Shown: piece by piece, positions 3,601 to 40,675 of the stretch
How positions within the stretch are numbered: the stretch's first letter is position 1
How the letters are laid out: each line of letters begins with the position of its first letter
Source of the DNA: a virus
Taxonomy: Duplodnaviria > Caudoviricetes
Length of the DNA: 64,000 nucleotides
Virus record (IMG/VR): IMGVR_UViG_3300050821_001527
Span: 64,001 to 128,000 of that record
Reading direction: 5' to 3' (one strand)
Program-made: the position numbers and the translations under genes
The notes under the pieces: model-generated
The model's input: only the letters and a program-made list of their open reading frames with translations
What the model was told of the DNA's origin: nothing
The model's database searches: none

Positions 3601-3869
3601 TACAGGACTATCACAATTTCATTTCCGAATTGAACTCCTATCAATCTAATTTCCCAATGAAGTCTGCGACATTCAATGTCGTTGGCTCGCCGAACCTGTT
3701 CGGAGACTTTATCAATTCGGTCACACCGTCCAGTGGGCTTACGAGCTTCACTGTGTCAATCGGGGACAATGGAGTAGAGACAAGTCTTTCGTTCTCCAAT
3801 AAGCCGCCGACGCTACCTAAGCAGGAGGCCATCCTCAACAGTATCGGCCCAAGACTCAAGCCTTTGTAA
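612..3869 (+). CDS. Large virion (tail/baseplate-type) protein, 1085 aa
   Basis: Long ORF abutting its neighbours in a structural operon; no enzyme motif recognised. Confidence 0.55.
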   Translation: MAFQALKGVSIIPKGANNRYVSQNWQTSQAFGGWIFKADCKIGFSDKPTEISMQIVLETNSDLSNLVPQVFDISPNDLQCGAGAGGTEQESLYDIDFNGVLLSDFVLFSYDMDIQPNQKTLSVVFKDYSIVLDKIYVGLIKRQGTEFIKSAQASGIIPVVCPDCEFGSWTGDGAVVRDIDYGSYVGIGGKTYDNLAGTPITNALSAWQYLYELPTQQPTFDLNGGYIILGMEQMYSDVCSTVPEMKYTFHQLLASLRVRGLNFDGAFTGFLLTGTPYMQNYVGTLREVLNNWCSDFGLQFYTTGRTFIGLNMVNQIDIERIMSIADPKTTLGAEFDGSSQVALSNYRESHTLENTFKQSVITADVRPRQINNESRDVKNFVSFQPLHPLDFYSPDFSPLFAEVLQNHLSTVRHRTTGVQFANDFMATKKRFSSFTNRYFKDIDISIALTKYDPDMRDIYCANRAIQANIDEGGVFDPNTTSNDNVSDFYANFAALGFIPQIQITNVTAKEAAIRKLLGGNLSQNISLNPDFYEVFVGYYQPYLKQEVTSFEGTWAGAMYKYGVLNIGTTDVPPFVHKDFNQWDTPTGGLYGVSGDYLTKLVNTFTPAANFYPIYQDAPYYDLMPYHILGFNPNAYTGASLGNIGFDSNQYYVGSLSNEWGTLDFQYKQELYDALSPVCEQMFSVSDNLQKIQRELPQSIQHFNIKDFMPTFHPNIGEVYNDLKAELDNLSTTATDAIGILAVGTDSRIHQECAKLHVCIVPNIETHPNARISFNMNDYYDSYNAIMARNLFLQYETQRLELLKQVPPNICKYSPVSVVCNTGLLLSGEAHSGDSKFSCTNIDDPISILWAGWPSGFASGNNARSLSITVERNPVTSMEQKGLDGEYYYDEALQAVPSLIHRIASTKIIYPISNKPNDLFEYIGLMSSTISRELRTPPFMEIYGSPVSETGNNTSMVKTINNTIDPDVKPILDPNTMRFKNYATVYSGNANGTVLQTIQDYHNFISELNSYQSNFPMKSATFNVVGSPNLFGDFINSVTPSSGLTSFTVSIGDNGVETSLSFSNKPPTLPKQEAILNSIGPRLKPL

Positions 3870-3870
3870 C

Positions 3871-5709
3871 ATGTATCTAACAGGCAACATCAAAAAGGTT
3901 TTTCCACTGACCAAGAGCTTCGCTTTTGAGTTGGATAATCTTTTTCTGTTCGGAACAGGCACGGCCCAGATAGGGTTCTCTGGATACGGAAGCCCAAGCG
4001 GGCAGGACGGAACGTTCTACCTTACGCTGACCAATGACAAGCTTTACGATAACAGCGGCATGTTCGTTTGGGGATACGACAAGCCATTCAATCTGCGCGG
4101 AGAGGTCGTCAGCGGACAATCCCAGCTTTTCATCAATGGCGAACCTTTGAGAATAGAGTCCTGCTCGCCAAACTGGTTCAACATACTAAGTGTCACGTTG
4201 GACGGGGCATCCGGGGTCAACGCAGACGTTTACTTATACACGCCCGCAATCCCAATTTCGATTTCAGTTAGCCCGACATATCTGCCGGGTGGAGAACTGA
4301 CCGTAGATGTAACCAACAACTCGGACATGGATGTTCTTGTTTTTGGATATGACATCCAATTTACCGACAATACATTCTTCCTTCCGCCTCCGCTATCTGG
4401 TATAATTTCAGGTATGGTGTTCGCAAGTGGAACGTCTCACTTTAATCTGTTCGATACGTCAAATACCCAAGACGACAAGACTTACCAGTTCGATTTGTTC
4501 TTGAACACAAGCTTAGGTCAGGTGGCTCAGACGTTTTTCACTTCTTCTGTATCTGGATTCAATTACATAGTTCCATCGCTATCCAAATTAAGTCCAGACC
4601 CTAGCATCCCTACGCTGTTTTACGATGTAACTGGATTAAACACTTTGACGTTCGAGAGTAATCCGGCGCAGGGATTCTTAGCAGCTAGAGTATCGAAGTT
4701 CAATGTTTTTACTCAAACTGACGGAACGGGCGTAGTTCATGTTGACTTTTCTCCGGGTTTGCCAGCTACCAACATTTTCTACACACATGAGTATGTGACG
4801 GGGTTTGAAGTTACTGTGACTGGATTCTATGATTCGTGCCCAAACGCTGAATTCACCCAATACTATTCGGTTAGAAATTTTGATTTCGGGCTTAACATTT
4901 TCACGACTGGGTGCCCGGTGGCCATTCCTCTGCTCTTTTCTGGAATCAATGGCATCGGAAGCGGAGCATCGGGTTGGTTGTATTTGAATCCACAACCCGT
5001 GGTTGACCAAGTTGTCTATGGCTCCATCATCAGTCCGGCGTATTTTTACATTGCAACTGGATTTGAAATCTTGGATAAGGGTTCTGGATATGTGGAACCA
5101 CCTTTTGCTTATTTAGGAACAGGAGGGGGCTGCTCAGACTACACGCTGGACAGCGGGGTCAGATTCCCGTTTAGTGCATTTGCCGGTTTACCGGTCATGG
5201 GATTGGACGCGGGATACCTTACTGGATTCCCAATTTGCGGAGCAACGGGAAGTGGTTATTATTTGCAGGGGTTGATTTTCACGAATCCGGGTTCCGGTTA
5301 TTCGTCGGCCTTTTACCCAAAGGTTTCATTCGTAAGACAATCAGGAGACATGCAGGTTGGTGATGCTTCTGGGGTCATAGTATTAAATTCTACTCACAAT
5401 CATTACGTGTTCAATGACGTGTGGCAACTGTCTAGTGGGCTGAATGCAGAATCATTAAGCCCAGTTACGGGTAGTGTAATACCTTATAGTGGCGAGACTC
5501 CTTTGTATTTCGGACTGACTGTGAATCCGATACCTTATACTGGAATAATGACGGCGATTGTGACTTTGACGGCAGATGGCTCATCAATTTCATTCACCGC
5601 CAGTGGATACAAGGCATACTCCACAAACCCGAAAATCTTGATGACAGACCTGAATTATTTCTCAGACTCTTCATCAGTATTAAATTTCCTGAACCAAGGA
5701 TTGACATAA
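3871..5709 (+). CDS. Virion structural protein, 612 aa, S/T-G rich
   Basis: Beta-rich, Gly/Ser/Thr-rich; repeated GSGY motif; starts 1 nt after the previous stop. Confidence 0.55.
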   Translation: MYLTGNIKKVFPLTKSFAFELDNLFLFGTGTAQIGFSGYGSPSGQDGTFYLTLTNDKLYDNSGMFVWGYDKPFNLRGEVVSGQSQLFINGEPLRIESCSPNWFNILSVTLDGASGVNADVYLYTPAIPISISVSPTYLPGGELTVDVTNNSDMDVLVFGYDIQFTDNTFFLPPPLSGIISGMVFASGTSHFNLFDTSNTQDDKTYQFDLFLNTSLGQVAQTFFTSSVSGFNYIVPSLSKLSPDPSIPTLFYDVTGLNTLTFESNPAQGFLAARVSKFNVFTQTDGTGVVHVDFSPGLPATNIFYTHEYVTGFEVTVTGFYDSCPNAEFTQYYSVRNFDFGLNIFTTGCPVAIPLLFSGINGIGSGASGWLYLNPQPVVDQVVYGSIISPAYFYIATGFEILDKGSGYVEPPFAYLGTGGGCSDYTLDSGVRFPFSAFAGLPVMGLDAGYLTGFPICGATGSGYYLQGLIFTNPGSGYSSAFYPKVSFVRQSGDMQVGDASGVIVLNSTHNHYVFNDVWQLSSGLNAESLSPVTGSVIPYSGETPLYFGLTVNPIPYTGIMTAIVTLTADGSSISFTASGYKAYSTNPKILMTDLNYFSDSSSVLNFLNQGLT

Positions 5710-7397: not shown

Positions 7398-8562
7398 GCA
7401 TTTCCACAAACATGCAGTTTTCGGCTTCATCGTTCCAGAAGTCCGGGGAGTCAATGACGGGCTGGAAACCCTCAGTTTTGACGACTCCTGCGATTTGGGA
7501 GGCTCGGGAGGCATAAACCTTGCCCTCGCTGTGGACGTTGCGGCAGGATTTAAAATGCAAATTATTGATTTTTTTTAGCTTTTCCAGCAACTCGGGCTTG
7601 ATTTTAGGAATCACGTTGATGTTGGCGTGTTCGTAATAGTCAATCTTTTTGCGCTCGATTTGCTCGGATGGCAAATTACACAGAAGGGCACAGCGAATCC
7701 CAAGTTCGGCCACTTCCCTGACGAAAGCGGGTTCGTCGTTTTCGCGGATAAAGTAGAACATGCCCTCAATCGCGGCCTTGTTTGCGGCGAGGATTTGGAG
7801 ATTGATTCTCCTGTCTGTGAAGATGCGGCAGCGATTCACGCGTAGCTGACGGGCAAGGATTTCTTCGTCGAACAGATAATCCATGCGGACATCCAAAACC
7901 GCCTTCTTGTCATGGACATTGACCACTTGATTAGGCACGAAGTCATTGATTTGAATACGGCCATAACCATCCCCAATGTGGATTGTGCGGAACGCAGGCG
8001 CGTAAGCGATGCCGAGAAGCTTCAAAATGGCTTCGACTATTTCTTCTGGAAAAATAGTGTTGATGGTCTTTGGGTTTTCGTCGGAGGCATACGAAGGCTT
8101 TTGACCAAGACGTTCATAGCATTTGAATACGATGTGCTGGCTCTTGTCGCCGAAATAAGGGCCAGCGTTCTCTGGCTGGATGATGTTGTAGAGGGCAACG
8201 ATGGGGATGTTGAACGCGGAGGCAAGGTGAATGGCGAAACTATCGCATCCAAAATGGAGCGCGGAACGTTTCACGATATAAGCCAACTGGTTGACTGTGG
8301 TTCTTCCGCGATAGTCAATCGCCCCCGCGATTGCTGGGTCGTTAGGGCCACCCGTTTGGACAATCTTGATGTTCTCCTTCGCAAGAATGGGCAGGAGAAG
8401 GCCGATTACGTCCTGCCAGTAATCGTAGTTCTTGGAGTTGAACTTGGTGTTCGTGTGGAAAGAAATGTATTTTCCTTCCGGCAACGGAGTGAAAGACTCG
8501 TAGATAAACGGCTCGTCAATCTTGGCTCCGCAAGCTAGGGCGTATGTTTCAATCAGGTGCAT
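7372..8562 (-). CDS. GT9 (heptosyltransferase-like) glycosyltransferase with C-terminal extension
   Basis: K-x-Y-x-Y-W...VQTGG...DYRGRTTVNQLAYIVKRSALHFGCDSFAIHLASAF is a GT9 signature. Confidence 0.8.
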   Translation of the reverse strand: MHLIETYALACGAKIDEPFIYESFTPLPEGKYISFHTNTKFNSKNYDYWQDVIGLLLPILAKENIKIVQTGGPNDPAIAGAIDYRGRTTVNQLAYIVKRSALHFGCDSFAIHLASAFNIPIVALYNIIQPENAGPYFGDKSQHIVFKCYERLGQKPSYASDENPKTINTIFPEEIVEAILKLLGIAYAPAFRTIHIGDGYGRIQINDFVPNQVVNVHDKKAVLDVRMDYLFDEEILARQLRVNRCRIFTDRRINLQILAANKAAIEGMFYFIRENDEPAFVREVAELGIRCALLCNLPSEQIERKKIDYYEHANINVIPKIKPELLEKLKKINNLHFKSCRNVHSEGKVYASRASQIAGVVKTEGFQPVIDSPDFWNDEAENCMFVEMLDKTRNIP

Positions 8563-28317: not shown

Positions 28318-28338
28318 CTTACCTATAATTACACTGTC

Positions 28339-35179: not shown

Positions 35180-35919
35180 GGCTTCATATTTGCCCTGACA
35201 ACATCCAAGGAGTAGTTCGGGTGCCAAGAGGCTGTCCCGTATTCTTGGGTGGCGTCGTTCATAGTTATGATTTCGACTTCCGCCTCGGGGCTGGCTAACG
35301 CTCCAATCCAAAATGAATATGAACCAAGGGACAAAACCATCTTGCGGTGGGAGGCTCCTATGACCAAGGTTTCGGAGGCGTTGTTGTATTTTAGTGTCTT
35401 GAACCCATATTTCTTCACCAGAGCGCGGGTGATGTCGTCATTCTCGTCGTGGCTGGCTATTACCCCGTTCTTAAAATCCATCAACGATAATCTGCGGTCA
35501 TAGTATTCAAACGGAAGGACACATGACTTTGGGACGGGGGCGGCAGGGCAACTATTCCTAATATGGATGAACACTGTCTCCGGGTCTGTATCCACCTTCT
35601 TGAAGGAAAACAGGTCGGCTAAATGCTCACCAAAGGCTCGGTGATTAACAACGGAAGGTTGTTGGCAATACGAGAGAATCATGGCTCCTCCATTCAGTTT
35701 CCTATCCATGAACTCGCCAGCGTTGTTTTCGTCTATTCGGTGGACTATCGAAAGCTTTCTTCCGAGTCTCAAGAATTTTGAACGCGCCAGATTGAAGGAC
35801 TGTTCGATGTCGCAATCCCAATACAGGTCGTTATTCTTGGATAGAAAACTAGCGTAGGCGTGGCGAAAAAGCTTGTTGCCTAAGTTAGTGTTCCATATCC
35901 CGAATGGGACGGTAATCAT
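35167..35919 (-). CDS. GT11 (alpha-1,2-fucosyltransferase-like) protein
   Basis: NLGNKLFRHA (cf. GLGNQMFQY), FIHIR, SLGSYSFWIGAL. Confidence 0.7.
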   Translation of the reverse strand: MITVPFGIWNTNLGNKLFRHAYASFLSKNNDLYWDCDIEQSFNLARSKFLRLGRKLSIVHRIDENNAGEFMDRKLNGGAMILSYCQQPSVVNHRAFGEHLADLFSFKKVDTDPETVFIHIRNSCPAAPVPKSCVLPFEYYDRRLSLMDFKNGVIASHDENDDITRALVKKYGFKTLKYNNASETLVIGASHRKMVLSLGSYSFWIGALASPEAEVEIITMNDATQEYGTASWHPNYSLDVVRANMKPCKT

Positions 35920-36260
35920 TACGGGCCTTTCGCTTGAGGGTGTGGCTTCTTCGTTCTCTTGGAATAGTCCGACTTGGCCTTTTCCTTGATTGGGTCATTG
36001 CCTAAAACACGCGCCCTCTTTTCGGACATTTCCGCACTCTTATCCCACATATCCCCTATCGTGTAATTCTTCTTGGAGGTTTTATCCGTGAAGTCTTTTT
36101 GGGAATGAGGATTGATTTTAGTGTCAATGGAGGCGTTGGGAATTGTGAAAATCCTATTCCATTTCACTCCGTTCTCCTCAAAGGTATGCGACTCGTTCAC
36201 TCTTTGAACGATTTCTCTGACCTCTTTCGAGGATGGGTGCTGGAATATGTAGATTGGCAT
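35919..36260 (-). CDS. FmdB-like small regulatory protein
   Basis: MPIYIF N-terminus (cf. MPIYEY); Zn ligands absent. Confidence 0.45.
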   Translation of the reverse strand: MPIYIFQHPSSKEVREIVQRVNESHTFEENGVKWNRIFTIPNASIDTKINPHSQKDFTDKTSKKNYTIGDMWDKSAEMSEKRARVLGNDPIKEKAKSDYSKRTKKPHPQAKGP

Positions 36261-36445
36261 TAGTTAGCCCAAATGAACTTCACCTTTTCAAGCGGGACGG
36301 TCACCCACTTGTTTTCCTTGTTCAAGACTTCCACGGTGACCTGTTCGGTTTTTCCGATAATCTTAGGCTCGCTGCAAGCCAGTTGATTGACCAAAATACC
36401 GGCGACTTCCGCCCCGGTTAGTTCTGCGCTAATGTTGAGTTTCAT
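36260..36445 (-). CDS. Hypothetical protein, 61 aa
   Basis: ORF coupled to its neighbours. Confidence 0.5.
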   Translation of the reverse strand: MKLNISAELTGAEVAGILVNQLACSEPKIIGKTEQVTVEVLNKENKWVTVPLEKVKFIWAN

Positions 36446-36446
36446 G

Positions 36447-36755
36447 TTATTTTAGATGCTTCCCTTCGACGCCACGTTGCTGACGCTCATACGTCCTCGA
36501 TTGCTGGGCATATAATGCCGACTTGAGATGACCGATAGAGCAAAGAGTTTCCTCGGACGGGAACTTGTTGTAGAGACTCTGCATACGGTCAATCAACATT
36601 TTGAGGACTTCCTCGTTGGTTGTCCCGTCGTTGAGGGTGACAAGCTCGCCGGGATTGGCCGTAGGAGTCTTCTCGATAAACTGGATGGTCTGTCCAGCTT
36701 CCTTGTTCTCGAAATTCTCAAGAACGTATTTGTGTCCGGGTGTTAGGATTTTCAT
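36447..36755 (-). CDS. tad1: Tad1-like anti-defence sponge protein
   Basis: GH.Y...TIQF...G...E.L....DR.......F.S.E....HL..AL.....R...R..R.V.G matches the Tad1 pattern as recalled. Confidence 0.72.
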   Translation of the reverse strand: MKILTPGHKYVLENFENKEAGQTIQFIEKTPTANPGELVTLNDGTTNEEVLKMLIDRMQSLYNKFPSEETLCSIGHLKSALYAQQSRTYERQQRGVEGKHLK

Positions 36756-36758
36756 AAA

Positions 36759-37100
36759 TTAGTCAACCTTGAAGTGCATCAGTTCTCCGATGGGAGCCTT
36801 TGCTTCGGTTTCTACTGCAAGTTCCGATAAACGTGCGGGTGCGCCGTTTTGCTCCATGCAGGCGACGGCGATTCCGGCAATTTTTCTGATATTGTCCAGA
36901 CTTGGCCTTTCCGCTACCGGGCCTGAATCTGACTCCTTGATATACGCATCCTCCGCTTTTCGCAGGTAGGCGCGAAGGATGGTCAGATACTCACCGACAC
37001 GCTTGGGGTCAATCCAACCGTTTTCCTTGATAAGAGCGTCCTGATAATCCCTTTCGCCGTCAATCAGGGAGTAAACTTGCTGTCTAGTTAGAGGGTTCAT
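36759..37100 (-). CDS. MazG-like all-alpha NTP pyrophosphohydrolase family protein
   Basis: I..ER.YQD...E.L.....YL.KA......IRKIA..AVACME helical pattern. Confidence 0.55.
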   Translation of the reverse strand: MNPLTRQQVYSLIDGERDYQDALIKENGWIDPKRVGEYLTILRAYLRKAEDAYIKESDSGPVAERPSLDNIRKIAGIAVACMEQNGAPARLSELAVETEAKAPIGELMHFKVD

Positions 37101-37818
37101 AATTTCTTGATTTCAAATCTTCCACGTCAAATGCGTCCGTCAGTTTATTCTTTGAGAAAAATCCCAAGAATCCAAAATTTTGTCCCTTGTCTTTCAGTTC
37201 AAGAACAAGGTTATCGGAGAATCCAATGGACGCCAGCTTGGACTTCAAATATTTAAGCTCGTTCGGGGAGTGTGGAATTTCAAAACATACGTTCTCCACG
37301 TTCCCAAAAGCCTGCTCATTCAACGATACGAAATCAAACAGGTAGGCACCAATGTTGATTTTTAAAAGATTGATACGCTGCTCGGTTATTAGTCCTTGTA
37401 GTATCTCAATCATGGACAGGGACAGAACATTCTCTCCGCTATCCGACGGCTGGATAGTCCCGTAGTCGAGGACGTGTTGGGAATTGATTTTTGGTTCAGG
37501 AAGCTTGAACGTGGTGTGTCTGTGAAACGCGGCAATCTGGTAAGGCGAAACTGCGTCAGTGAATACTTCCGTATTCTTCAACAGCATCCTGTAATTGTCC
37601 GCGAAAGGCTCGAAGGCGTAGCATTTCGTGTAATTCGCGGCCAAAGCAGCCAGAACAAAATACCCGCAATGTGCCCCAATATCAACAGCCACTATCCTGC
37701 TTCCGGCTTGGGGGTCAACATCCAATTTCTTGAGGCGATAAAAATTGGAATAAAATACCTTGTCCAAGTAATACTGGTCAGTGGAGTAGCTGCGGATATG
37801 GATGTTAGGCGTTTGCAT
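37084..37818 (-). CDS. FkbM-family methyltransferase
   Basis: VDIGAHCGYF...AFEP...N...L..N...LLKINI. Confidence 0.85.
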   Translation of the reverse strand: MQTPNIHIRSYSTDQYYLDKVFYSNFYRLKKLDVDPQAGSRIVAVDIGAHCGYFVLAALAANYTKCYAFEPFADNYRMLLKNTEVFTDAVSPYQIAAFHRHTTFKLPEPKINSQHVLDYGTIQPSDSGENVLSLSMIEILQGLITEQRINLLKINIGAYLFDFVSLNEQAFGNVENVCFEIPHSPNELKYLKSKLASIGFSDNLVLELKDKGQNFGFLGFFSKNKLTDAFDVEDLKSRNYEPSN

Positions 37819-38914
37819 CGAAGGTCTTGATTATGGATTCAGCGAGCTTCTCCTTGGAGAATTGGGTTTGTAACTTGAGTCCGGGAGAATTGAGTCTGCT
37901 CTGACCGACTCGCGCAATCACCTTTTCACATGCCGCGATAAAGGCTTCCTCGTCCCAAGTGAAGATGGAGCCTTGGTTGAATGGCTGTCCCTTTTGGAAG
38001 AACATTCCGTCGTATGCTTCTTCCTTGCCGTTAGTAGGAACGATAACAGAGTTTGACTCGTTTGACCAATCCGAATATCCGGGGCCGTCGAGGATTACCG
38101 CGTGTTTTCCGAGGGCGACAGATTGGAACTCTGGTAGCCCCCAGCCTTCGCCACCAGACATGCCAAGCACAATATCTCCCGAGTTGAGGAACTCGTTATA
38201 CGAGGCGTTTTCCTGCATGGAAGGAAGGAAAGTAACGTTGAACGGCTTTGGCTTTCCTTCAAGAATCAGATTGGCCGCGATATGGTTATTCTGTTGAGCG
38301 TTGATGAAGGGGTTGTAGATGGCACATTGCAGGGCGTAGCGGGAGTTGTTCCCATATTTCTTAATCCAAGCCTTAATCATCTTCAAGTGCTGCTTGCGCT
38401 TTTCAAACTTTCCGCAAATATTGAACACGATTCTCCCGTCGGGGAAGTATGTCTTGTTCGTGTTTTGGAAGTTATAAGAGTCGAACGCCAGCGGCATGTG
38501 CGACGTTTCAACCCCGAATTTCTTGAAGACTTCGCAGGTAAACTTGCTTGAGAAGAACGTCTTGTTATTTCTGGCGATGTTAAGCTCGACTGGCGTGGGA
38601 GCATCAAGTTCATAGAATGATAACAGGGTTTGCTTCTCCGAGAACGACTCCATTGAGCCATTAAGATGCCACAGCTTGAAAATGGGATTCGAGCGTTCGT
38701 GCATGTTGTAGGCTGCGTGAATACAGTCCTCCAACCATTTGAGAAATTCAGGGTCTTGCTTTTGAGAGGCGAGGTCGTATCCGCCACCCACCGGGAAAAG
38801 CCTGACATCATAATCTGCGCCCGTCTTTATCAGGTCATAGATAGTCCTGAGAATCAATACGGATGTTTGTCCGAACGATACTCCATTAACGGGTAGATTG
38901 AATGTCAGAATCAT
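37805..38914 (-). CDS. GT4 glycosyltransferase
   Basis: GKFEKRK, EGWGLPEFQSVALGK. Confidence 0.88.
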   Translation of the reverse strand: MILTFNLPVNGVSFGQTSVLILRTIYDLIKTGADYDVRLFPVGGGYDLASQKQDPEFLKWLEDCIHAAYNMHERSNPIFKLWHLNGSMESFSEKQTLLSFYELDAPTPVELNIARNNKTFFSSKFTCEVFKKFGVETSHMPLAFDSYNFQNTNKTYFPDGRIVFNICGKFEKRKQHLKMIKAWIKKYGNNSRYALQCAIYNPFINAQQNNHIAANLILEGKPKPFNVTFLPSMQENASYNEFLNSGDIVLGMSGGEGWGLPEFQSVALGKHAVILDGPGYSDWSNESNSVIVPTNGKEEAYDGMFFQKGQPFNQGSIFTWDEEAFIAACEKVIARVGQSRLNSPGLKLQTQFSKEKLAESIIKTFDANA

Positions 38915-39133: not shown

Positions 39134-39451
39134 TTAAATGTCCAGTTCGGTCGGTTCGAGGACGGGCGCGGCAGCAGGCTTCGCGGCTGGTGCCTGAGCC
39201 TTCGGAGCCGGGGATGCGGCGGCAGGAGCGGGCTGACCGTTCCCTTCGCGGTTGGACAGGTAAATCTTGAAGTCCGGGTGCTTTGGTTCCTTCTTACCCT
39301 TGTTCTTGAATGCAACAAGGTTTACCTTCTGGTTGATTCCCCACTGATTGAGGTCAATGGAGAGAGAGATGAACTGTGCGCCGGATGCGGCCTTCTTGAC
39401 CCATACTGCGCCCAAGTCCTTCTCGAACTGCTTTTCATTTGGATTTTCCAT
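39134..39451 (-). CDS. DUF736-like small protein with Ala/Pro-rich tail
   Basis: LGAVW.K....G..F.S......F.N..K....PDF.I; acidic C-terminus resembles SSB tails. Confidence 0.6.
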   Translation of the reverse strand: MENPNEKQFEKDLGAVWVKKAASGAQFISLSIDLNQWGINQKVNLVAFKNKGKKEPKHPDFKIYLSNREGNGQPAPAAASPAPKAQAPAAKPAAAPVLEPTELDI

Positions 39452-39467: not shown

Positions 39468-40070
39468 TTATACTATGTCAGCGAAGTCCGTGCTACGGAG
39501 CTTCGTGCGAAGAAAATTCATTCCTCGCTCATGTAGATTGATTACCGTCTGAGACGAAATATTCATTTTTTCTGCAATTTGTTTCCACTCCTTCTTTTCC
39601 GGGGACAAATGGCGCATTTCAATGATTTGCGGGATTCTCTTATCCTTCATTTGGGACAGTAGATTTTTCAGGAAGTCGTAAGTCTCTTTGTTTTCCTCTT
39701 TCTCCCTTGAGCCGTGCATGGAGTCTGCATTATCCAGCATTTCCCTCATTTCGTCAGTGTCAACACTTATCAGACACTTCCTCTTGGTTATCGAATTCAG
39801 ACACAGAAATCTCGCGTAGTTGCAGATGTGGGTGGACAATTTCGCGCCCCTTTTAGGGTCGTATGTTTTAATGCAGTTAAATATAATGATATTTTTCTCA
39901 TTAAATATGTCCGTCGGACTGATACCTGAGTTGATTAACGCCGGGGTAAATTTGTGGCACATCTTGTAAAAGACGTTTTCATACCTTCGGCATAGTTCGA
40001 GGAAACTGTCATTACAACCGTCCTTCTTGACTCTACGAATCAAGGTTTTATCGGGGATATTGGTCATCAA
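39468..40070 (-). CDS. Sigma70-family phage sigma factor
   Basis: Region 2 (YDPKRGAKLSTHI) and region 4 HTH (WKQIAEKMNISSQTVINLH). Confidence 0.88.
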   Translation of the reverse strand: MMTNIPDKTLIRRVKKDGCNDSFLELCRRYENVFYKMCHKFTPALINSGISPTDIFNEKNIIIFNCIKTYDPKRGAKLSTHICNYARFLCLNSITKRKCLISVDTDEMREMLDNADSMHGSREKEENKETYDFLKNLLSQMKDKRIPQIIEMRHLSPEKKEWKQIAEKMNISSQTVINLHERGMNFLRTKLRSTDFADIV

Positions 40071-40675
40071 TAAGGATAGACCATTTTTTTGAAATAAAAT
40101 TCACGAACGCACGGGACTGCCCCTGTATGATGTTTCTTAGCAAATATAGGCAGACATCCCCTTACCGGAGTAATGGTTACACTACTCTAGTAAGGAGATT
40201 CTGTATGCCGTTTCTTGAGGGCTTGAAATATTTAATGTGGTAAGCCACTCCACGCAGCATTGAAACTTTGTTAGTCAGCAGCTACCGGAAGTCCGGGGAT
40301 GCGAAAGGTCTTAAAACGCATTTACGCTGCCGTCCCCGTGCTTACGCACAACGGCGGGTGAGCCTCTACGATTTCTCGTAGCCTTTTTATTTTCTCGTCA
40401 AATCGAGAGCCTAGCCCTTGTTGCGTCTGTTTGGCTTCAGCGCGTCCGCGATGGAGCAACGTGGGAAAACCTTACTGTTTGTTCTCAGCAGGCTGAAAAT
40501 GGATACAACCATTTGTTCTATACTACGGAAAGTTTACAAAGGAGTCAAGGATAAAATTCCGCTTGACAAAACTTCTGGTTATCAATTACACTTGAAAGGT
40601 GAACATTGGCCCTTTAATATTCTTCGGTTTGATTTTCTTGTATGCGGCTATTTTCTTCGCTAATATAAGGAAGAC

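Follow-up and report, generated by a model that had tools for sequence, protein, structure and literature searches.

Genes at the locus

The DNA considered here (the window) is a stretch of 64,000 nucleotides, bases 64001-128000 of the 202,882-bp IMG/VR record IMGVR_UViG_3300050821_001527, which represents an uncultured 203-kb phage with a CheckV completeness of 91% and a GC content of 47%. Replication genes, ribonucleotide reductase, a tRNA array and a tmRNA are present in the record, indicating a large tailed phage. Positions 36447-37100 of the window are filled by two tightly packed minus-strand open reading frames (ORFs) with 3 nt between them: one of 102 amino acids (aa; 36447..36755), the main subject of this work, and one of 113 aa (36759..37100). 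A first-pass annotation, made from the letters of the sequence, had placed both ORFs exactly, and had described them as a Tad1-like signal sponge and a MazG-like gene inserted in a glycosylation operon. Tad1 proteins form small homo-oligomers; they capture the nucleotide-derived alarm signals of the Thoeris (TIR) and CBASS (cGAS-like) defence systems and so keep them out of reach. As detailed below, the 102-aa ORF is a member of the Tad1 family with the whole Tad1 fold, whereas its 113-aa neighbour is a separate protein from a family of unassigned role, and is not demonstrably a MazG.

The 102-aa protein has the sequence and the fold of Tad1

The motifs on which the Tad1 assignment had been based are all present in the 102-aa protein: TIQF (residues 23-26), DG (43-44), LIDR (54-57), FPSEE (65-69), HLKSAL (76-81), R87, R91 and RGVEG (94-98). 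When the single sequence was searched against the PDB with phmmer, the six best matches were all Tad1 (E 0.005-0.017); with a profile built from 72 homologs, CmTad1 was recovered at E 5.5e-13 and CbTad1 at E 7.8e-11, and Tad1 chains were the only significant PDB matches of the protein. Homologs were collected at E<=1e-3 from a large protein collection (n = 397), and 72 were aligned. The characterised Tad1 proteins are SBSphiJ7 Tad1, CbTad1 (PDB 7UAV, 7UAW, 8SMD, 8KBE, 8KBF) and CmTad1 (8KBB-8KBD); pairwise BLASTP against characterised Tad1 gave 3e-13. A tblastn search of GenBank phages matched 81 records. Among them were SPG24, a Bacillus phage whose Tad1 is annotated as such (E 1e-7, with 38% identity across 94% of the query), and SBSphiJ7, the source of the founding Tad1 (E 6e-6). 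The protein also matched phrog_2428 at E 1.5e-16.

The AlphaFold (AF2) model of the 102-aa protein has a mean predicted confidence (pLDDT) of 95.5 and consists of five strands (residues 2-42) followed by two helices (47-64 and 68-94). All the Foldseek matches above the E 0.1 line were Tad1, which occupied ranks 1-18 with TMq values of 0.52-0.74. Structural alignment with VIA-align to CbTad1 (16-124) and CmTad1 yielded Z 9.4-9.7 with an rmsd (root mean square deviation) of 2.3-2.8 Å over 95-96 of the 102 residues, the best being CbTad1 (Z 9.7, rmsd 2.3 Å, 96 residues, 25% identity), while matches below Z 7.5 covered the helical hairpin alone, indicating that the likeness to Tad1 extends over the whole fold and beyond the shared hairpin. 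Sequence, profile and fold thus agree on the assignment, and the profile and Foldseek comparison with Tad1, proposed in the first-pass annotation as a check, did find a structural match.

One of the hairpin-only matches was Acb2 (anti-CBASS 2; T4 Vs.4, PDB 7UQ2), for which 55 residues align at Z 6.3; Acb2 is without a beta-sheet domain, and forms a hexamer that binds trinucleotides at its three-fold axis (bioRxiv 10.1101/2023.11.15.567273). Like Tad1, the 102-aa protein combines an N-terminal antiparallel sheet with a two-helix hairpin and ends in an ...R..R..RGVEG tail; unlike the 125-aa CbTad1 and the 142-aa SBSphiJ7 Tad1, it is without about 15-50 N-terminal residues. Short (~100-aa) Tad1-like proteins with a canonical "CREN...T...W" pattern are common in IMG/VR contigs (L033, P0088-P0120) and match Pfam PF24729. 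The window protein is of the same length and architecture as these, with 54-66% identity and with H8, Y10, Q25, K29, T40, G44-E48, R57, E69, R87 and R91 in common, but it belongs to a sister clade (E/D68, T70, K78, Y82, A83) and falls below Pfam detection.

The two-fold pocket is partly kept and the trinucleotide site is substituted

Ligand contacts taken from publications were mapped onto the 102-aa protein through HMMER and MAFFT alignments to CbTad1, CmTad1 and SBSphiJ7 Tad1. The Thoeris signal gcADPR is contacted in CbTad1 by F82, F87, N92, R57, R78, R109, R113, G120, N122 and H29 (bioRxiv 10.1101/2022.05.03.490397). Within this two-fold pocket, R78, R109 and R113 are kept as R57, R87 and R91, all three invariant in the 72 homologs, and F87 and G120 are kept as F65 and G98, with at least 90% conservation. 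N122 corresponds to H100, a His being likewise found in SBSphiJ7 Tad1, and H29 corresponds probably, by alignment only, to H8. The stacking F82 is changed to L61 and the base-reading (adenine-reading) N92 to T70; R57 and G55 of CbTad1 have no obvious equivalent in the shortened lid loop.

Cyclic trinucleotides are contacted at the three-fold pocket by R90 and T97 of CbTad1, equivalent to R88 and T95 of CmTad1 (bioRxiv 10.1101/2023.11.15.567273). These positions are E68 and G75 in the window protein; the canonical Arg and Thr are therefore without a match, and E/D68 together with a variable residue 75 is found across the whole subclade described below. Changes were also present at the hexamer interface, which in CmTad1 is formed by Q98, E99, M102, W103 and K106 (bioRxiv 10.1101/2023.11.15.567273): Q98/E99 are replaced by K78/S79, and M102/W103/K106 by Y82/A83/S86.

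The alignments locate the two irregularities pointed out in the first-pass annotation, an EN altered to ET and a missing Trp, since CbTad1 Asn92 aligns with T70 and CmTad1 Trp103 with A83. The accompanying suggestion that ligand specificity may differ finds backing at the level of residues (E68, G75, T70 and A83). Li et al. reported substitutions in ~12% of Tad1 homologs at the dinucleotide/gcADPR site and in ~6% at the trinucleotide site, so that a substituted trinucleotide site does not exclude membership of the family; such substitution is already known in outline.

A derived subclade with coordinated substitutions

The ~100-aa Tad1-like proteins among the 72 homologs occur in two states, canonical R/K68-N70-T75-W83 (RNTW) and derived E/D68-T70-x75-A83, whose residues co-vary. 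E69 is invariant in all of them, as are the three arginines of the two-fold pocket, and the GTTNEE loop is unchanged in the 72 sequences of both clades. When the four trait columns were left out of the tree, the sequences in the derived state still grouped as one clade, comprising 35 of the 72 rows (SH-aLRT 96). Positions 68 and 78 were compared in 177 distinct sequences: 79 have an acid/base pair, 74 a base/acid pair, and none has residues of like charge. At positions 82 and 83, Tyr-Ala is present in 80 of these sequences and Met-or-Leu/Trp is present in 79. Since R88 of one CmTad1 protomer touches Q98/E99 of its neighbour (bioRxiv 10.1101/2023.11.15.567273), the 68/78 swap can be read as a reversed inter-dimer salt bridge, suggesting that the trimer-of-dimers interface may have been rebuilt, not lost, while the Arg that holds the trinucleotide phosphate is gone.

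These residues bear on whether the window protein could be a Tad1 of the entirely canonical, dual-site kind, binding gcADPR and cyclic trinucleotides as CbTad1 and SBSphiJ7 Tad1 do, its substitutions being neutral. The whole-fold match and the retained Arg clamp agree with such a protein, as do two published results: ten of ten diverse Tad1 homologs inhibited Thoeris (bioRxiv 10.1101/2022.05.03.490397), and trinucleotide binding was broadly conserved in the tests of Li et al. Single mutations R90A or T97A in CbTad1, however, nearly abolished cA3 binding, and the F82A/N92A double mutant was severely reduced in gcADPR binding (bioRxiv 10.1101/2023.11.15.567273); the Arg is a Glu in the window protein, and both positions of the double mutant differ. 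Moreover, the changes are fixed and coordinated throughout the clade, unlike neutral drift, and we regard the canonical dual-site explanation as improbable.

Probable horizontal acquisition of the Tad1 gene

The closest copies of the 102-aa protein (85% identity) were located on unrelated IMG/VR contigs of 38-56 kb, with 55% GC over the fetched loci. In two of these, L003 and L004 (38 and 56 kb), the Tad1-like match lies at 8001-8315, beside RecT-like and methyltransferase genes. The presence of copies this similar in smaller, GC-richer phages points to a horizontal transfer in the recent past, between phages that differ greatly, and the Tad1 gene of the window was probably acquired in this way. 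The codon comparison with the 85%-identical L004 copy showed 41 synonymous-only against 14 amino-acid-changing differences; the gene is under purifying selection and is a real gene. No close relative of the window phage was detected by megablast against GenBank phages or by a locus search based on its GT4 glycosyltransferase. A genome-wide scan of the phage found no second Tad1-like copy and no PF24729 match, and neither Tad2 (PF11195) nor Sequestin (PF21825) was found in it.

The gene might also encode a Tad1 scaffold repurposed for another task, for example structural or protein-binding, and binding no immune signal. Such repurposing could explain why several ligand-contact positions are altered, why some Bacillus and Lactococcus phage homologs are labelled "structural protein", and why the gene is found within a glycan-building operon and not in an early anti-defence cluster. 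On the other hand, the database labels are without structural support, neither the diphosphate-clamping Arg residues nor the GTTNEE loop varies in any of the 72 homologs, which argues for a conserved small-molecule pocket, and mobility among unrelated phages is typical of accessory counter-defence genes. A repurposed scaffold is accordingly considered very improbable.

A compact sponge that would use the two-fold pocket

The best explanation, to which we assign a probability of about 0.7, is that the 102-aa protein is a compact immune-signal sponge of the Tad1 family that uses the two-fold pocket, and in which cyclic-trinucleotide binding has been lost or re-specified. Such a protein would still oligomerise and would sequester an ADP-ribose-derived or a cyclic-dinucleotide signal in the two-fold pocket, while it would no longer bind cA3 or cAAG in the canonical manner.

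Several observations weigh against this explanation. The 102-aa protein gave no match to PF24729 (Acb2/Tad1 hairpin) at E<=1, nor in a second scan at E<=0.01; homology to this family is transitive, because 33 of the 72 homologs do match it (best E 4.5e-9), mostly canonical types of 54-66% identity plus a few members of the window clade. The "structural protein" labels of the Bacillus phage homologs count on the same side. The two-fold pocket is not identical to that of CbTad1, as the beta4-alpha1 lid loop, which in CbTad1 contains R57/G55, is shorter by ~11 residues in the window protein, and the classical ligands may not bind, because the positions of F82 and N92 are occupied by Leu and Thr and the corresponding double mutation impairs gcADPR binding. 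As for the trinucleotide site, Lys78 might take over the phosphate contact, which would make the loss of binding uncertain, and the 68/78 covariation mostly reflects a single phylogenetic split.

A further-reaching proposal is that the derived E/D68-T70-K78-Y82-A83 clade forms a hexamer through the reversed salt bridge, with both pockets re-specified for a signal left unbound by canonical Tad1, which could be another TIR product or a new molecule. This proposal is put forward tentatively, as an unlikely one.

The three-helix neighbour is not demonstrably a MazG protein

The 113-aa ORF upstream of the Tad1 gene (36759..37100, minus strand) had been called all-alpha, which agrees with its AF2 model (pLDDT 89), an all-alpha arrangement of three helices. 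It belongs to an unannotated phage family with 49 close homologs and, at E<=1e-3, 3,575 representative clusters (50% identity). The family core of ~85 aa contains the motifs ERDYQD and IRKIA..V.CME, tandem duplications of this core are frequent (forms of 175-200 aa), and one representative (P0264) is fused to a dCMP deaminase. Across 66 diverse homologs, the positions R6, E16, R17, R72, K73 and E83 are invariant.

The proposal that this neighbour is MazG-like was examined in its strongest form, an active NTP pyrophosphatase of the MazG type acting jointly with Tad1, for instance through the breakdown of alarmones or signalling nucleotides. All-alpha NTP pyrophosphatases, namely DCTPP1/RS21-C6, AF_0060 and YpjD, were indeed the only folds to match the model over its full length, and its named neighbours in the Atlas were MazG/PRA-PH clusters (TM 0.52-0.57, a lead-level likeness only). 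The three-helix protein also resembles MazG, DCTPP1/RS21-C6 and HisE in the size of its helical bundle and in its tandem duplications, which are common in MazG as well. The dCMP deaminase fusion, together with the surroundings of a Rhizobium phage homolog, which lies among hypothetical genes ~0.6 kb downstream of a deoxyribonucleotidase and ~4 kb upstream of a dCMP deaminase, may be weak hints of a link to nucleotides.

Against a MazG-type enzyme, the three-helix protein gave no sequence match in Pfam (no family at E<=1), PHROG, NCBIfam or the PDB, profiles included, and a PDB search with two profiles of the family was equally negative; PF03819 (MazG), PF01503 (PRA-PH), PF08761 (dUTPase_2) and PF04447 had no match at E<=0.1 in the 49 homologs. 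The alignments with DCTPP1/RS21-C6 (Z 7.1-7.8, 82-97 residues, rmsd 3.6-5.6 Å) did not rise above unrelated helical matches, Foldseek E values were 0.5-1, and ribosomal L29 and other helical hairpins scored about as high (~7), so that the resemblance lies within helical-protein noise. The protein is predicted to have three helices where the all-alpha NTP pyrophosphatases have four or five. The acidic metal-binding motif of the MazG superfamily is ExxE(12-28)ExxD, and no conserved ExxE/ExxD pairs were found in helices 2 and 3 among the 66 diverse homologs. Finally, the three-helix family was present beside Tad1 in none of the 80 other Tad1-like loci (0/80), and is thus not a conserved partner of Tad1. 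A MazG-type enzyme acting with Tad1 is for these reasons considered unlikely, and no link was found to the alarmone removal that the first-pass annotation had mentioned for phage MazG proteins. An Acb2-like sponge was considered too: PF24729 was absent from the 49 homologs, and Acb2 was not among the listed fold matches.

Gene order and surroundings

The two ORFs belong to a minus-strand chain that runs, in order of transcription, through a sigma-factor gene (39468-40070), two small ORFs, a GT4-like glycosyltransferase gene (37805..38914; phrog_2170, E 1.3e-9), an FkbM-type methyltransferase gene (37084..37818; TIGR01444, E 1.3e-6; phrog_8156, E 6.4e-7), the three-helix ORF, the Tad1 gene, a 61-aa ORF (36260..36445), a second 113-aa ORF (35919..36260) and further glycosyltransferase-like genes. 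The FkbM gene and the three-helix ORF overlap by 17 nt, 1 nt separates the Tad1 gene from the 61-aa ORF, and two TAATG overlaps follow. Between the sigma-factor and GT4 genes lies a 105-aa protein (39134-39451, minus strand) whose N-terminus is weakly DUF736-like (E 3.4e-4) and whose tail is rich in Ala and Pro; this protein is missing from the contig L033 discussed below.

A promoter consensus scan around the Tad1 block returned weak sites only. The phage-specific motif GTGTAAT occurs in 21 copies against 5.4 expected; around the leftward block at 28-40 kb, its minus-strand copies were found only at 40585-40591 and 28328-28334. These two positions are consistent with one long leftward unit headed by the sigma-factor gene, without proving it. 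The Tad1 gene appears to lie in a long leftward operon with glycan-building genes and to be expressed from there.

The only fragment with backbone genes in common with the window was L033, a 144-kb contig of 37% GC with partial synteny, from a distantly related phage. In L033 the sigma-factor, GT4 (E 1.1e-75) and second 113-aa genes stand side by side, the homolog of the last (3807-4196, minus strand, E 2.8e-26) being directly downstream of GT4, itself after the sigma-factor gene. In the window, the FkbM gene, the three-helix ORF, the Tad1 gene and the 61-aa ORF intervene between GT4 and this 113-aa gene. L033 has a Tad1-like copy of its own, of the canonical RNTW type, 2.6 kb off and on the other strand. 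The Tad1 segment is consistent with an insertion at a variable spot, as judged from this one comparison. The reported insertion in a glycosylation operon therefore holds in so far as additional genes separate two that are adjacent in L033, and is limited by the comparison of a single fragment.

No partner gene conserved beside Tad1-like genes was recovered by clustering the neighbours in the 80 loci. The top neighbour clusters were set aside, as they consisted of antisense shadows of the Tad1 gene or of one group of near-identical contigs.

The small ORFs at 35919-36445 had been regarded as candidate anti-defence genes, for which no signal was obtained. The 61-aa ORF matched only itself among 5.8 billion proteins and had no family match; it is translationally coupled on both sides, and represents a genuine orphan gene or else filler that is non-coding. 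The 113-aa ORF at 35919..36260 matched phrog_385 (E 0.002) and, in the Atlas, viral clusters at 0.94-0.96, the nearest named family being Zn_ribbon_8 (0.82). Its product begins with MPIYIFQ like FmdB/Zn_ribbon_8 proteins and is without cysteines, so the likeness to these proteins is weak. It belongs to a phage-wide hypothetical family and is part of the backbone in common with L033.

Significance

The host immune signals that a phage must neutralise can be read from its sponge proteins, which have also been put to use in finding new signalling molecules. Here, an uncultured phage of 203 kb carries a Tad1 gene that was probably acquired horizontally, from a clade in which the trinucleotide-binding and adenine-reading residues have been replaced and the phosphate clamp has been kept. 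The practical gain is modest, as Tad1 diversity is well surveyed and the substituted sites are in the literature. The three-helix neighbour, for its part, draws attention to a phage family of very large size (over 3,500 representative clusters) that is without annotation. The derived clade provides a defined set of natural variants for studying how sponge specificity evolves and, if the proposal of re-specified pockets is true, it would help to discover a new signal, the part that Tad1 and Tad2 played for gcADPR and His-ADPR.

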